DNA of 64,000 bases from an uncultured Candidatus Saccharibacteria bacterium (GCA_964362305.1 CAYIDY010000001.1:1526-65525), one strand, 5' to 3'. Shown: positions 2,368 to 53,200, numbered from the stretch's first letter. Notes: generated from the letters alone by a model not told the origin. Made by a program: numbers and translations.

Positions 2368-2390
2368 TCTAAAACTAATGTTGATAAGTA

Positions 2391-2432
2391 CAAACGGAAA
2401 ACCCCCGGCGTAAAGCCGGGGGTTTTGGTGTT
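2391..2432 (-). terminator. rho-independent terminator of the RRM protein gene
   Basis: CCCCCGGC-GTAAA-GCCGGGGG stem at 2402-2422, flanked by an A-run and a T-run. On the minus strand the stem is followed by TTTTCCGTTT. Confidence 0.7.
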
Positions 2433-2448
2433 CTGAAAGAAACTGATA

Positions 2449-2829
2449 TTACCAGCGACCTCCACCGCCACCATTTCCTCCTCCACGATTGCCACCTCCG
2501 TAGCCACCGCCACCTCCTCCTCCGCGGAAATCGCGGCGAGGGCGGTCCTCCATCGGACGTGCCTCGTTGACAGTGATCGAACGACCACCGAAATCCTTGC
2601 CATTGAACTGGTCAATAGCCTTCTGTGCATCCTCGTCGGCTGCAAATTCAACGAAACCGAAACCTTTCGAACGACCTGTCATCTTATCCATGATGACCAC
2701 TGCCGATGAAACAGCTCCTGCTGCTGAGAAAGCATCCTTGAGTTCTGCGTCTGTGGTGCTGTAAGGCAACCCACCGACATATAGCTTTTTAGCCATGATA
2801 CTCTGTGCGTTTTCTTCTTGATAAACCAT
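2449..2829 (-). CDS. RRM-type RNA-binding protein with Gly-rich C-terminal tail
   Basis: RNP-2 KLYVGGL and RNP-1 KGFGFVEF motifs, with a C-terminal GGGGGGYGGGNRGGGNGGGGG tail. Confidence 0.9.
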   Translation of the reverse strand: MVYQEENAQSIMAKKLYVGGLPYSTTDAELKDAFSAAGAVSSAVVIMDKMTGRSKGFGFVEFAADEDAQKAIDQFNGKDFGGRSITVNEARPMEDRPRRDFRGGGGGGGYGGGNRGGGNGGGGGRW

Positions 2830-3099
2830 ATTGCGTCTTCGCTCGGACGAAATGAAAACAAGTTTTCGTTTCGGTCCTCACTAGCCGCAATAAACCATGT
2901 AAATCGCCTCTCCACTTCCCTGGCTTGGCTTATCACCGCACTTGGGCTTGGACACTTACATTCACGGCAACTGTAGCAGGTTGCCGGATGAAATCAATGG
3001 GAGAACTAGTATGTGTGGATTACTGGTGTGGCACCGCCGGTGCTTACGCACAGGCGGTGCCACATTACAAAGTATCGGCGGTGGCCGATTCCTAATCCA

Positions 3100-3170
3100 G
3101 CAAAAAAGCCTGGTTCAGCCCACTGACAGTGAGTTAAATACGCCTTGTCGGTGGGCTGACTTTTTTACCA
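3100..3170. terminator. bidirectional terminator-like hairpin
   Basis: CAGCCCAC (3116-3123) pairs with GTGGGCTG (3151-3158), bounded by an A6 run upstream and a T6 run downstream. It sits immediately 3' of the stop of minus gene 3165..3554. Confidence 0.55.
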
Positions 3171-3554
3171 CATTCCAAAGCCCTTCCCTGTCAGATATGC
3201 GCCCATGATAATCGACAGAAGTCCGCCGCTCGTAAACCATGTGGGCGTGCTAAACATTTTCACAAATTTAACCAGTCGCGTGTACGGCATCGTGAGATAG
3301 AAGATAGCCTCCACCATTATCCAGATGCCAATGAGTGTGATGAGGCCTTGCCACGTAGCGGTAAAGATAGGATGCGAAATAACTAAAGCAATACCAGCGA
3401 ACAACTGACAGAGAGCCACTACCATGAGAAATCCTCGACTCCCAAGCATGTCGGTCATTATGTGCATGAACGACTTCTGACGAAACATCACAATGACGCC
3501 AGCAATAAGAAAGTACAAACCGAACAATTGTGCTAAGAAAATCGACAATTCCAT
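3165..3554 (-). CDS. small 4-TM membrane protein, unknown function
   Basis: 129 aa with four hydrophobic helices. Confidence 0.55.
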   Translation of the reverse strand: MELSIFLAQLFGLYFLIAGVIVMFRQKSFMHIMTDMLGSRGFLMVVALCQLFAGIALVISHPIFTATWQGLITLIGIWIMVEAIFYLTMPYTRLVKFVKMFSTPTWFTSGGLLSIIMGAYLTGKGFGMW

Positions 3555-3637
3555 AATATAAGTTTCCCTACAATAATGAAGCTATTGTACCGTGCCGTGC
3601 AGAATATCTAGCAGTCTTCCTATTGTTTCGTGGATAA

Positions 3638-38028: not shown

Positions 38029-38190
38029 ACGTATTCGTGCGGCAGTGCCGCTTAATGATTATTTCAACAATCTTGAGCGAGTTTCAGCCTAGGAGATACA
38101 GGCCGGTCTCGAGAGATAGCTCAAGACGATAAACTAGAGAAAGTTGACTTGGCAACTCTACAATACCCTTAATCATCCGTCAATGGCCTG

Positions 38191-38209
38191 ATGCAAGGCT
38201 TAGCCTTGC
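38191..38209. repeat. palindromic element copy 3 (ATGCAAGGCT-T-AGCCTTGC)
   Basis: Same core as copy 1 with a similar downstream flank GGGTTTGTTAGCGGCG. It lies between the DEAD-box helicase start and the stop of 38217..38426. Confidence 0.55.
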
Positions 38210-38216
38210 GGGTTTG

Positions 38217-38426
38217 TTAGCGGCGGGCGAGCATTTGCTCCTTCACGCAGTCCAGGCAGGTCTTCTGGCGAGGTCGGGTCGAAATGTACTTATTGCCACA
38301 ATCGCACTCCAGAATCTTGCTTTTCAGGGGCTTATATACGTAAACGCCCGGTGTCGGCTTCTTTGCCTCGACCTTCAGAGAGGCTTTTGGTGCCGGAGTC
38401 TTCTTTTGTTTCTTTTTGGTAGCCAT
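38217..38426 (-). CDS. small basic zinc-ribbon protein
   Basis: 69 aa with a Lys-rich N-terminus, then CDCG...C..C (ECDCGNKYISTRPRQKTCLDC). Confidence 0.45.
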   Translation of the reverse strand: MATKKKQKKTPAPKASLKVEAKKPTPGVYVYKPLKSKILECDCGNKYISTRPRQKTCLDCVKEQMLARR

Positions 38427-38434
38427 GCAGTAAA

Positions 38435-38458
38435 AAATCGCACCCTTCTTGGTGCGAT
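38435..38458 (-). terminator. terminator-like hairpin in the leader of the zinc-ribbon gene
   Basis: AATCGCACC (38435-43) pairs with GGTGCGATT (38450-58). On the minus strand the stem is followed by TTTTT and then ACTGC-ATG. It is preceded by TTGACA (38499-38494), 17 nt, then CATTAT. Confidence 0.55.
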
Positions 38459-38556
38459 TCCTTCAGGCGCATAATGACAGAAATTCGATAGAATGTCAAT
38501 TTTTTAGAGAAAGGGCCGCCGATTATTCATCAAACGGCCCTGACCCAGCGCGAGAT

Positions 38557-38853
38557 TTACTCCCGCTTGACGAAGTGTGATGCGGCACCAAGAAAGCTGT
38601 CTATACTTCGGAGACCCGGAGTCGGTTCGGGCTTTATTCCGAGCCATTCCTCCAAATCACCCTGAGGTTGCTCGAGAGTGAGCTGCCTCAGAACTTCAAT
38701 TTCATTGATACCGAGAACCTTCGCCATTTCAGAAATATCAATCACGATTCGCATCGTGGGTCCTTTCTCTTGCTGGGGTGGCATAGTTGCCACCCGCACT
38801 AGACCAAAAAAGATTTCATTCTGCAAGTTTTTAGCGAATCGAGAAATCAGCAC
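38557..38853 (-). CDS. hypothetical protein
   Basis: 98 aa. Possible internal start at MPPQQEK... No domain recognised. Confidence 0.4.
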   Translation of the reverse strand: MLISRFAKNLQNEIFFGLVRVATMPPQQEKGPTMRIVIDISEMAKVLGINEIEVLRQLTLEQPQGDLEEWLGIKPEPTPGLRSIDSFLGAASHFVKRE

Positions 38854-50278: not shown

Positions 50279-51313
50279 CTATCGAGTTACGCGGACCATC
50301 GTCGTGTTCATGACGTTGATCGAGCCTGACTCTGAGTGAGCAGCACCTGTGCGAACTTCGCCTCCGAGAGCACCTGCTCCACCGTCTGCGCTTCCGCCCT
50401 GACCTGCGTCACCACCAACTGCTTCGCCGTTGGAACCGAGGTCCCATTCACAGCCACAGCGTTCTTCGTCGTCGCTTCCGACTTCTGCAGAACCGCCTCG
50501 GCCGCCGTCGCCAGCTGTACCACCGTTGCCACCTTCGCTGCCCTTAGCTTTGTTGTCGCCAGTGTCAGCCTTAGCTTCGGTTTCGTTCTCGATTTCACCT
50601 GAGTTGTACACTTTGATGGTGACAGAGTTGTCAACATCGCGGCGGAACCAAGGTGGAATACAAGCACAGTCGTTCTCGTCTTCTTCACAGCCACAGCCTT
50701 CTACTACGATATCAACGTTGTTGAGCTCGTTTGCAGAACCTGCCTCTGCTGTTGCGTTGCCCGTTACAACGTAGCCGCCGTTTCCAGCGTCGCCGCCGTG
50801 TGCGCTGCCACCTGTACCGCCATTGCCTCCTTCTGCTGACGAGTCAGTGCTTGAACCACACTCACCACACCAGCTCATACCACCGTCAACCTCAGCGCGA
50901 CCGCCTTTTCCGCCGTCGCCTGCTGTGCCGCCGTTGCCGCCGTAGCTTCCGCCAGCGTAGTTGTCGCCAGTGTCAGCCTTTGCTGTCGTCGTGTTCGAAA
51001 TCGAACCCGAGTTTGATACTTTGATGTATACCGAGTTGTCCTCTTCAGAACCTCCCCAGTCGCCACCACATTCGTTCTCACATGCGCTAGCTGTGCCAGC
51101 GAATGCAAATGCCAATGCAGAAACCGCGAGGGTTGCTACACCGAATTTCATTGAGTTTGTCATATATTTTAATGTGTTTAACATTTTTTTAAGTTCTGAT
51201 AACCTCCCGATTTTCATTGTGCCTCCGTACGGACGGCGCAATGTAATTTCAGAGCTTCGACCTTTTGTGAACATGCCTCCCGAGCGATTGAGCTCGTTTC
51301 GCCTGCAGTCCAC
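50279..51313 (-). CDS. secreted Gly/Cys-rich repeat protein, paralog-family member
   Basis: The probable true start is 51163 or 51151 (MTNSMKFGVATLAVSALAFAFAGTASA signal peptide). Two copies of DNSVxIKVxNSGxIxNxTxAKADTGDNxAxGSxGGNGGTAGDGGxGGxAEV occur. Cys pairs (CENEC, CGEC, CGCEEDENDCAC, CGCEWD) suggest disulfides. Confidence 0.7.
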   Translation of the reverse strand: MDCRRNELNRSGGMFTKGRSSEITLRRPYGGTMKIGRLSELKKMLNTLKYMTNSMKFGVATLAVSALAFAFAGTASACENECGGDWGGSEEDNSVYIKVSNSGSISNTTTAKADTGDNYAGGSYGGNGGTAGDGGKGGRAEVDGGMSWCGECGSSTDSSAEGGNGGTGGSAHGGDAGNGGYVVTGNATAEAGSANELNNVDIVVEGCGCEEDENDCACIPPWFRRDVDNSVTIKVYNSGEIENETEAKADTGDNKAKGSEGGNGGTAGDGGRGGSAEVGSDDEERCGCEWDLGSNGEAVGGDAGQGGSADGGAGALGGEVRTGAAHSESGSINVMNTTMVRVTR

Positions 51314-51965
51314 GGCGCGGTCCCTCGGGAGGAGGGATCGCGCCGTATACTTCAGCGCTCGCCTCCCAAAGAACTCGTAACAAAACAGCAGACCGCCTTA
51401 AAGACGTTCTGCTTTCCAACACGAATAAATACGTTTGTAGATGCGGTCATGAAATAACCGCTGGTTTCCCTTGGTGCATCGAGCCGTAAGGCGCCGATGT
51501 CTTTACTGGTTTCCCTTGTGCTGGAGTCTTTGGCTCAAACATCAACCGCAACAACGTGATGAGAGCCCTGACTTTAACCAAAACTACTTCAAACAAAGAA
51601 GTCCGCTGATTTCCCTACACACAATCGCGAGAGCGTTTGTGTGAATTCGTTTTCCGCGGCGCACGCGACTAAACGATGGAGGAATTATCTCGCACGAATC
51701 AAGAGTGTCAATGAATATACCTGTGAATTGCGCATTGCAATTCTCGTGTGACAACTTGTCAATCATGTGTCGGAAATTTCTTGACACCGAAATTCTTCAC
51801 TTTATCGAAAAAGAGGAAAGAGGTTTGGTATACTTGCCTTTCATTGACGTATACGGACTTCAGGTGGGCCCGAAACCTAGGGAAACCAGCGTAAAGCTGA
51901 TGGCTTTGGGCCCGCCTGACATCCTTATTACTTTTACAAAAGAACTGCGAGCAAGGTTTTCTATC

Positions 51966-51999
51966 ACACGTCGCGGGCATGTCTACCCGCGACGTGTGT
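51966..51999. terminator. perfect 13-bp hairpin (terminator-like) adjacent to the stop of 52007..53200
   Basis: CACACGTCGCGGG (51966-78) pairs with CCCGCGACGTGTG (51987-99) across an 8-nt loop. On the plus strand it is followed by TTGTAATACTATCTT. Confidence 0.5.
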
Positions 52000-52006
52000 T
52001 GTAATA

Positions 52007-53200
52007 CTATCTTCCGAACACGCGCCTGAAGAAAGTGGTCACTGGTTCCCACAATCGGTTAAGAGAGCGCGTCGCTGTCTCTCCTGCAGCCGCCGTCTGA
52101 GTCTCTTTCGATGCACTTCCAACTTCCTTCTCATCAACTTTCTTATTCTTATCCGGAATCGAAGGTGTCGCTGGTACGCCGGGACGAGACGGTGTCGAGG
52201 GTGCAGTTATTTCAACCTTTGTCTTGGCAATCGTCTCCGCTTCTTCGCTTGTAAGAGGGAATTCTTTGGTCAATTTGCAGTAAATCTCATTTGCTTTTTT
52301 ACGCGTAGTTAGATACACGAAGCCAGTAGACTTTGTTACCCCCCAGGGCGCAAGAATATCTGCCGCATACTTTGTCTGGAACACGTGCACAGCAGCAATT
52401 GTTTGCGCACCGTATATACCATCAACTTCAAGAGCTGCGCCTTCAGACTCATTGAGAAGACTCTGCAAACGCTTAACCTGTTCCGCGTCGTTATTCGCGC
52501 CTGGCTTTATGAACGCTGTGAGGTACATGTCGCACGATGCAACCATTTCGAGCGTTGAGCTAGCCGACGTTGTCTCTGTAGTCGTCGCTGCTGTAGAACT
52601 TGCTGAACCACCGCCACCGCCTCCTCCTCCACCTGATGCTGAGTTTGTTTCGTCATTATCAGACGCGCTCGAACAGCCGGGGTCATTCATGTCTTTCAAA
52701 CCGTCACCATCATTGTCGACACTGTCTTCACATGCCGGTGCTGGCCCGCCACTGTTTCCACCTGAGCCTCCTCCAGAACCGCCACCGTTGTCTCCTCCTC
52801 CGTTTCCACCTCCTCCTGTAGTGTTTGATTCATCGTTGTCGGTAGAACCAGAACATCCTGGGTCCGCGCTATCTACAAGTCCATCACTATCGTTATCAAT
52901 TCCATCTGCACACGCTGGAGTTGAACCACCTCCACCGCCGCCGCCTCCACCTTCACATCCCGAGGCGTCAAAGCCTTGCGGAATCGGGAGACCATTTGCC
53001 ATTAATTGAGCAAAAATCTCACAATTTATTTCAGAAGCCGAAGGAGTGTCTGGACTAACATTCACATCAACTTCAGGCATTGGGACGTCAACATTGACGT
53101 CCGGAACCTGCGCGTAGGCAAGTCCAGTCCCAAACAAAACACTTGCACCAACGAGAAGTCCGATTGAAGCAAGTTGCGCACGTCTTACAAACATAAGCAA
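52007..53200 (-). CDS. secreted Gly-rich protein with two Cys-bracketed TSP3-like Ca-binding motifs and C-terminal peptidoglycan-binding domain
   Basis: Signal peptide. CADGIDNDSDGLVDSADPGC and CEDSVDNDGDGLKDMNDPGC both match DxDxDGxxDxxD. Poly-Gly linkers and a PG_binding_1-like segment (VKRLQSLLNESEGAALEVDGIYGAQTIAAVHVFQ). Confidence 0.75.
   Translation of the reverse strand: MLMFVRRAQLASIGLLVGASVLFGTGLAYAQVPDVNVDVPMPEVDVNVSPDTPSASEINCEIFAQLMANGLPIPQGFDASGCEGGGGGGGGGSTPACADGIDNDSDGLVDSADPGCSGSTDNDESNTTGGGGNGGGDNGGGSGGGSGGNSGGPAPACEDSVDNDGDGLKDMNDPGCSSASDNDETNSASGGGGGGGGGSASSTAATTTETTSASSTLEMVASCDMYLTAFIKPGANNDAEQVKRLQSLLNESEGAALEVDGIYGAQTIAAVHVFQTKYAADILAPWGVTKSTGFVYLTTRKKANEIYCKLTKEFPLTSEEAETIAKTKVEITAPSTPSRPGVPATPSIPDKNKKVDEKEVGSASKETQTAAAGETATRSLNRLWEPVTTFFRRVFGR

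Follow-up and report, generated by a model that had tools for sequence, protein, structure and literature searches.

Results

Genomic setting and extent of the non-coding region

In the 64,000-nucleotide stretch of DNA that we analyzed (the window), which comes from an uncultivated Parcubacteria genome, two minus-strand genes flank a long non-coding region. The upstream gene (52007..53200) encodes a secreted protein composed of acidic double-disulfide repeats (NF033662), a PG-binding domain, and long Gly runs. The downstream gene (50279..51163) encodes a Gly-rich secreted protein without a known family and is followed by the gene of a 914-aa PG-binding protein, with which it forms the operon. 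Profile searches with the operon proteins against NCBIfam and PDB gave no useful information, and the AlphaFold2 model of the 290-aa protein (pLDDT 52) was unusable. The whole neighborhood between 47346 and 53200 codes for uncharacterized secreted or envelope proteins.

The longest open reading frame (ORF) of the Gly-rich protein gene starts at 51313 and the database protein (P0001) at 51217, and both appear too long. The family alignment begins with MTK or MTN. L004 has ATA in place of the ATG at 51217 used by the database entry, and in L001 this ATG is not in frame. These observations place the gene start at 51163 and extend the non-coding stretch to 51164..52006. A start near 51163 had been proposed in the first-pass annotation, made from the sequence alone, and is now backed by the protein family alignment as well as by the DNA alignment. 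The same annotation had judged two ORFs inside the region to be non-coding. We likewise rejected 51705..52004 (plus strand) and 51584..51787 (minus strand), together with 51759..52052 (minus strand), as coding sequences because they have no Pfam match and are not conserved in relatives; of the ORFs in the region, L003 keeps only the part overlapping the hairpin H1 described below, and L001 has no equivalent ORF.

Rfam 15 at gathering thresholds returned one tRNA only from the whole window. A permissive scan of 51100–52100 gave a best score of 19 bits against thresholds of 40–60 (E of at least 0.7), and 11 related loci gave no matches. Folded in both orientations, the region outperformed shuffled sequences on the plus strand (z = −10.4) and on the minus strand (z = −7.1), so the strand is not given by folding alone. 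The comparisons below place all elements on the minus strand, arranged from upstream to downstream in three modules: the hairpin RNA H1, a leader with promoters, a sequence motif, and terminators, and a structured 5′ UTR (module C). The minus-strand orientation of every element and the two to three conserved promoters inside the region had escaped the first-pass annotation.

Conservation among Parcubacteria

Homologs of the Gly-rich protein are found among Parcubacteria, namely Kaiserbacteria, Nomurabacteria, and "Minisyncoccia". Sequence comparison establishes that the arrangement is conserved: in about 40 Parcubacteria loci, a 580–865-bp gap with the same modules lies upstream of the Gly-rich protein homologs. 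It precedes the homologous gene in every protein-recovered locus, even where the upstream neighbor is a different one (YibE/F with a 420-aa protein, a divergent glycosyltransferase/deacetylase, an LTD protein, or a peptidase S8). The alignment of the five closest loci (A1) consists of near-identical blocks with variable DNA between them. A metagenome scan with a pattern from one conserved block gave 46 contigs, about 36 of them genuine, and these loci are biased towards an intact H1. A contig from Hainich groundwater, ERZ1292629...-19200 (L061), matches the region of the window without a difference over the compared stretch. Related loci were also searched for with a narrow alignment (A3; six loci).

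A Gly-rich homolog lies 440–830 nt downstream of H1, on the same strand, in 27 of the 38 unique loci, most of the remaining loci being too short to show the downstream gene. L025 and L033 carry H1, the motif, and the leader hairpin H2b directly upstream of a polysaccharide deacetylase-type or GT2 glycosyltransferase gene, without module C. The H1/motif pair is therefore modular and not bound to one gene family. A contig labeled Saccharibacteria (L016, 1700–2500) carries a distant Gly-rich homolog without H1 and the motif and keeps AAGGTCGATG upstream of it, so part of module C may predate the H1/motif pair.

The region had been proposed to be a structured non-coding RNA or a complex regulatory leader. 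The paired segments are kept in about 40 related loci, with covariation, and both halves of that proposal apply, as the region combines an apparently independent hairpin RNA (H1) with a promoter-proximal leader carrying terminators.

The H1 hairpin RNA

The first module comprises the following features.

51965..51998, minus strand: perfect 13-bp hairpin, 8 nt past the stop codon of 52007..53200
51853..51925, minus strand: H1, a 73-nt extended hairpin RNA, identified by covariance model and covariation
51879..51891, minus strand: anti-motif CGCUGGUUUCCCU in H1, made up of the apical stem's 3′ arm and the 3′ strand of the internal loop

H1 is built from an outer stem, a conserved mismatch, an invariant GGGCCC stem, a middle stem, an internal loop, and an apical CAGC/GCUG stem. 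Two copies of GGGCCCG had been noted in the first pass. They exist, at 51866–51872 and 51908–51914 (two and one nt from the positions given then), and turn out to be the two arms of this one hairpin, where they form the invariant GGGCCC stem. The covariance model R1 recognizes H1 in the window with 83 bits (E = 1e-20) on the minus strand as the sole copy, and exactly one H1 is found per locus. In the alignment of 40 distinct H1 sequences (A4), 93.2% of the cells pair and both sides change in 13 of the 26 pairs. The covariation score of this alignment is 0.361, compared with 0.186 ± 0.010 in shuffles, and sliding the partners lowers pairing to 24–58%.

The minus-strand reading of H1 contains 70 G·U pairs and 71 mismatches, the plus-strand reading 29 and 112. 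This G·U excess indicates an RNA read from the minus strand of the window. The aligned sequences thus establish both the structure and the strand of H1. A plus-strand RNA was considered and rejected: the wobbles in H1 (two positions) and in the downstream hairpin H3 favor the plus strand in this window, whereas the family-wide G·U counts and the promoters favor the minus strand. No Rfam family matches H1 and our literature searches found no description of these RNAs; H1 is a previously undescribed hairpin RNA family. The first-pass annotation had described the region as the largest intergenic gap of the window. Two other stretches of the window, 2368–3637 and 38029–38830 (at least 800 bp each), likewise have no ORF of at least 150 aa and only ORFs of 77–129 aa, and whole-window scans found neither an H1 copy nor an Rfam match in them.

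Of 38 loci, 28 have a P0-like promoter 65–160 nt before H1, and the promoter scan calls P0 as TTGACA-N17/18-TAGTAT in L024 and L035. A terminator stands between H1 and the next promoter in L035 (a scan call), L001, L025, and L026. In this window, neither a good P0 promoter nor a clear terminator flanks H1, which may belong here to the 3′ UTR of the upstream gene, by read-through, or to one long transcript. The perfect 13-bp terminator-like hairpin reported in the first pass is present one nt away from the place reported, with arms at 51965–51977 and 51986–51998. L003 retains this hairpin with both arms altered (CACACGTCGCGGG to CACATGCCGCGAG). In the window, the hairpin overlaps with the weak P0-like promoter TAGACA-N16-TAGAAA. 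It may act as a non-canonical terminator, with no U-tract following on the minus strand. In four loci (L029, L043, L050, and L057), tandem, partly degenerate extra copies of the H1 3′ half, e.g., CUGCUGGUUUCCCCAGGUUUUGGGCCCGCUUUGCAAUCUCA, lie downstream of H1 and amount to multiple anti-motifs.

Promoters, motif copies, and terminators of the leader

The second module extends from the promoters to the last terminator.

51734..51762, minus strand: P1, promoter-like site TTGACA-N17-TGCAAT, with the -35 invariant in A1
51684..51711, minus strand: P2, promoter TTGACA-N16-GATAAT, matching 11 of 12 consensus positions, with both hexamers invariant in A1
51618..51643, minus strand: 5′ hairpin of the leader (H2a-type), CACACAAACGC/GCGATTGTGTG, an inverted repeat
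51604..51616, minus strand: motif copy A, AGGGAAAUCAGCG, forming a 14-nt duplex with H1 that includes one G·U
51578..51602, minus strand: T1, immediately downstream of copy A, small hairpin ACUUC/GAAGU and then AGUUUUGG
51504..51516, minus strand: motif copy B, AGGGAAACCAGUA, identified by motif search
51459..51471, minus strand: motif copy C, AGGGAAACCAGCG, the exact complement of the H1 anti-motif
51443..51461, minus strand: H2b, hairpin GCGGU...ACCGC, with the 3′ end of motif copy C as its 5′ arm
51379..51412, minus strand: T2, intrinsic-terminator-like sequence folding as a hairpin, GCAGAACGUC/GGCGGUCUGC followed by UGUUUUGUU

Transcription from P2 would start near 51677. The family-wide comparison establishes P2-type promoters before the motif: TTGAC-N17-19-GATAAT is found upstream of it in 29 of 38 unique loci and TTGACA-N17-TATAGT in three more. 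The TTGACA of P1 lies about 50 nt upstream of P2, and a comparable upstream TTGACA exists in other clades. A combined promoter and terminator scan called P0, P2, and T2 in L024; P0, a terminator between H1 and P2, and P2 in L035; and P2 only in L005.

The motif, GGGAAACCAGCG, follows the -10 of P2 at a distance of 9–71 nt. Its copy number ranges from one to four, with one in most genomes, two to three in L015, three in the window, and four in L003. All four matches to AGGGAAACCAGCG with at most two mismatches in the 64-kb window fall within the region (three on the minus and one on the plus strand), with 1.35 expected window-wide. Two of these copies had been seen in the first pass as direct repeats. 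The repeats are real and their coordinates had to be corrected to 51459–51473 and 51504–51518, with a third copy at 51603–51616. A 12/13 match to the motif, TGGGAAACCAGCG, occurs in L001 (3953–3965) and L002 (3982–3994), some 75 nt into the 5′ part of the coding sequence for the ~420-aa upstream protein, where it could be a second target of H1 or a chance match; a match of this type is absent from the equivalent upstream gene in the window.

The hairpin H2b is present in almost every locus, and its arm sequences differ between clades yet stay complementary, which establishes it as an RNA structure of the minus strand. T1 takes the form of a canonical terminator in L003 and L004. The position of T2 is conserved with differing stem sequences, and the scan calls the L024 equivalent as a 13-bp terminator. 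Long leaders have T2 as a separate strong terminator 60–100 nt beyond the motif and H2b. As in an attenuator, T2 is found between P2 and the gene, and the ~20–40 nt from T2 to module C contain no promoter-like site. Since there is no promoter-like site between T2 and the gene, the operon must be transcribed by read-through.

In a minimal clade (L005, L018, L020, L038, and L045), transcription reaches the motif at about +2, and H2b and then a U-tract follow. Because H2b stands there directly before the U-tract, H2b is the terminator. Forcing the motif to be unpaired abolishes the terminator hairpin in the predicted fold of L005 and L038, the two that we folded. By contrast, the same constraint in minimum-free-energy folding leaves the predicted T2 unchanged in the long-leader clades, including this window, so an effect on termination is evident only in the minimal clade.

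Complementarity between H1 and the leader motif

The leader motif is perfectly complementary to the inner strand of H1, CGCUGGUUUCCC. A complementarity of 11 nt at a distance of 410 nt had been noticed in the first pass. It is real and longer than claimed, as 17 nt at 51459–51475 match 51875–51891 with 94% complementarity. What had gone unnoticed is that the direct repeats and this distant complementarity are two sides of one motif/anti-motif pair, which covaries across genomes. A contiguous H1–motif duplex of 12–14 nt can be formed in 37 of 39 loci, which is the conserved, covarying complementarity to a target that is expected of an sRNA, and which the alignments establish at the sequence level.

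Compensatory changes are found in several loci. L008 has CGCUGACUUUCCC opposite GGGAAAGUCAGCG, including an inserted base pair; G-C is replaced by A-U in L062 and C-G by G-C in L025; and position 13 is either C-G or U-A. The changed motif base of L025 fits H1 as well as the H2b 3′ arm. The single differences found in single-copy loci are all C-to-U opposite G or A-to-G opposite U, which give G·U pairs on the sense strand and A·C mismatches on the opposite strand. This combination of wobble and compensatory changes is predicted by RNA–RNA pairing and not by two copies of a DNA site, with the argument from wobble direction resting on about five independent events. RNAcofold and duplexfold of H1 with the leaders gave no gain over the separate folds (z from 0 to −2.3); this result is not informative because a contact between the internal loop and the linker is not nested and lies beyond the method.

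The apical loop of H3 has (A)GGGAAA(U/G) in single-motif clades (L005, L018, L020, L038, L045, L007, L017, and L052), with a near-full motif in L052. This loop could provide a second contact for the UUUCCC of H1.

A structured 5′ UTR precedes the Gly-rich protein gene

Module C, the third module, lies between T2 and the gene start.

51303..51355, minus strand: H3, long hairpin with 24-nt arms, showing covariation at no fewer than nine pairs in 19 sequences, with U·G pairs on the minus strand
51267..51296, minus strand: H4, variable hairpin CGAGC/GCUCG, followed by conserved GUUCAC
51215..51262, minus strand: conserved GGUCGA, then hairpin P5 (51243..51215), CAUUGCGCC...GGCACAAUG around CCGUACGGAGGC with an SD-like GGAGG
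51161..51163, minus strand: probable true start codon of the Gly-rich protein gene, where the family alignment begins MTK/MTN

The 13-bp stem reported at 51315..51345 in the first pass does exist. Its G·U pair on the plus strand is an A·C mismatch on the minus strand, and the stem is the tip of the longer H3, whose 24-nt arms (51303–51326 and 51332–51355) are 83% complementary. GUUCAC and GGUCGA sit between H4 and P5, and 24 nt of the GGUCGA/P5 block are invariant in the window and six loci of the clade to which it belongs. The box in P5 differs in other clades (CCTTAAGGAGGC, CCGTACGGAAGC), with CCUUAAGGAGGC as the enclosed sequence in another clade, and the P5 stem covaries, e.g., as CAUUG/CAAUG, CAUCG/CGAUG, CUUCG/CGAGG, and CUA/UAG in 19 sequences. 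Covariation thereby establishes H3 and P5 as structures of the minus-strand RNA.

The GGAGG lies 50–60 nt before the start codon. Given this distance and the lack of a conserved leader ORF, it is not the ribosome-binding site of the gene. A leader peptide after GGAGG was rejected, as neither L004 nor L021 has the ATG and frame and length vary. GGAGG may have a role in mRNA stabilization or processing. No known riboswitch aptamer matched the conserved, structured module C in Rfam scans of the window and 11 loci. The tip of H3, CCUCCCGAGGGA, is complementary to UCGCUCGGGAGG about 35 nt downstream (51276–51287 with 51321–51332; 12 nt, 92%), and the H3 tip found in another clade, GCAUCGA, complements the conserved GGUCGAUGCC. 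These complementarities may reflect a pseudoknot or an alternative fold in module C.

Discussion

Proposed mechanism

We consider it on balance probable that this conserved region serves a cell-surface protein operon as its minus-strand regulatory RNA locus, in which H1 would pair with the leader, displace H2b, and thereby control read-through or mRNA stability. The pairing in vivo, whether it takes place in trans with H1 as a separate sRNA or in cis within one long transcript, and its regulatory outcome are what we infer from the sequences. In the proposed mechanism, an upstream transcript would carry the stable H1, with GUUUCCC exposed in the internal loop beside the apical CAGC/GCUG stem. 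P2, together with P1, would start the leader, which would present a single-stranded GGGAAAC fused to H2b with its 5′ arm CAGCG(G). The GUUUCCC of H1 could then seed on GGGAAAC and displace the H2b 3′ arm from CAGCG(G), resulting in the 12–14-bp duplex. Strand displacement of this kind is the most economical reading of the mechanism.

In the simplest relatives, where H2b itself is the intrinsic terminator, pairing would act as an antiterminator. In the window and the larger versions with extra motifs, T1, and T2, it would tune the production of a short RNA versus read-through via H3, H4, and P5 into the operon, and it might also alter processing or stability. For the window, the outcome could lie in read-through, in processing, or in two short RNAs titrating each other.

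A more far-reaching proposal, which we put forward tentatively as a possibility, is that of a self-contained RNA-only switch in Parcubacteria. H1 would be an sRNA adjacent to its single target on the same strand, where it would open the leader hairpin or terminator by strand displacement. The motif copies would serve as decoys, the short leader RNA would titrate H1, and the resulting two-promoter circuit would determine how strongly the major surface-protein or envelope genes are expressed.

Alternative explanations

Several of the features would equally suit a passive long 5′ UTR, i.e., tandem promoters and the structured leader of an abundant surface-protein mRNA, whose hairpins and GGAGG would mainly stabilize the message and whose complementarity would either lack a regulatory function or only give rise to a long-range helix within a single transcript. 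Three tandem sigma-70-like promoters, the stable H3 and P5 with an SD-like GGAGG 50–60 nt before the start and no conserved leader ORF, and downstream proteins that are secreted and Gly-rich, or PG-binding, would all be at home in such a leader. We nevertheless regard this explanation as rather unlikely because it accounts neither for a 12–14-nt complementarity upheld by compensatory and wobble changes across clades, nor for conserved intrinsic terminators between P2 and the gene, nor for H1 and the motif standing before unrelated genes without module C.

The most serious structural look-alike is an invertible promoter, in which anti-motif and motif would be inverted DNA repeats around a 150–500-bp segment with P1 and P2, flipped by a site-specific recombinase. 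Inverted repeats of 12–17 bp indeed flank a promoter-bearing segment before surface or envelope genes, and inverted copies of a recombinase site would co-vary, too. However, a single orientation is seen in all nine protein-recovered loci, which are unbiased (the metagenome-scan loci, being biased to intact H1, are not counted on this question), and one population is represented by at least 10 independent assemblies that all have the identical upstream region in one orientation. The left repeat lies inside a hairpin with RNA-type covariation and a one-strand G·U excess, the differences between the repeats are all G·U-compatible on the sense strand, multiple direct copies of either repeat occur, and the called neighbors with Pfam matches include no recombinase, all of which makes inversion very improbable. 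An operator, with GGGAAACCAGCG as the DNA or RNA site of a regulator such as a DNA-looping repressor or the GGA-binding CsrA, would agree with the position of the motif 9–71 nt after the P2 -10, with its several copies in some genomes, and with the GGGAAA in the H3 loop in some clades. Such a protein site is scarcely credible for a sequence that is not palindromic, whose copies are spaced by ~140–540 bp without phasing, whose upstream copy lies within a covarying RNA hairpin, and whose variation obeys base-pairing, as shown by the wobbles and, for L025, by a three-way match that includes the H2b arm.

Implications

If true, an RNA-only switch would represent a new class of adjacent sRNA/attenuator module in reduced-genome uncultivated bacteria. 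RNA-based regulation in the Candidate Phyla Radiation is almost unknown, and its members cannot be grown alone. The locus provides a new and well-defined RNA family (H1), a covarying partner motif, and testable RNAs, and its conserved promoter, terminator, and 5′ UTR architecture precedes what are probably major cell-surface proteins. It also illustrates that "gaps" in tiny genomes can be dense in regulatory RNA, and the start of the downstream gene could be corrected.

Comparison with known regulatory systems

The leaders of the highly expressed cryIIIA (STAB-SD) and S-layer genes are long, structured, and stabilizing, with an SD-like GGAGG far upstream of the start and tandem promoters. The region described here resembles them in its long structured leader, distant GGAGG, tandem promoters, and secreted protein gene. 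It differs in that the GGAGG is sequestered in a covarying hairpin and is preceded by terminators and an antisense pair, and stabilization is a putative function here. Invertible switches such as fimS, cwpV of Clostridioides difficile, and the invertons of Bacteroides have short inverted repeats around a promoter or attenuator upstream of surface-structure genes. Short inverted repeats around a promoter segment are likewise found in our region, which in contrast occurs in one orientation (in the unbiased loci and at least 10 assemblies), has its repeat in a covarying RNA hairpin, and shows no recombinase among the called neighbors.

In the plasmids pT181, pIP501, and pAMbeta1, a small hairpin antisense RNA pairs with the nascent leader by loop contact and then strand displacement, and decides over an intrinsic terminator. 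The arrangement proposed here is alike in its hairpin RNA, leader, and terminator upstream of the regulated gene. The plasmid antisense RNAs arise from the DNA strand opposite their targets, to which they are complementary over the full length, and they induce termination, whereas H1 is a separate element on the same strand with only 12–14 nt of complementarity and would prevent termination in the minimal clade.

The closest characterized analog is the StsR sRNA of Rhodobacter sphaeroides with UpsM and the dcw 5′ UTR (PMC8266604). The dcw system has a long envelope-cluster leader with a terminator, where partial termination produces the abundant short RNA UpsM (PMC8266604). StsR pairs with both UpsM and the leader, which changes the leader structure and the amount of read-through mRNA; it is encoded elsewhere and acts via RNase E cleavage (PMC8266604). 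H1 shares no sequence or structure similarity with StsR and comes from a different phylum. Unlike StsR, H1 is encoded directly upstream of its proposed target on the same strand, its motif can be repeated, and in one clade the terminator stem itself would be the target.
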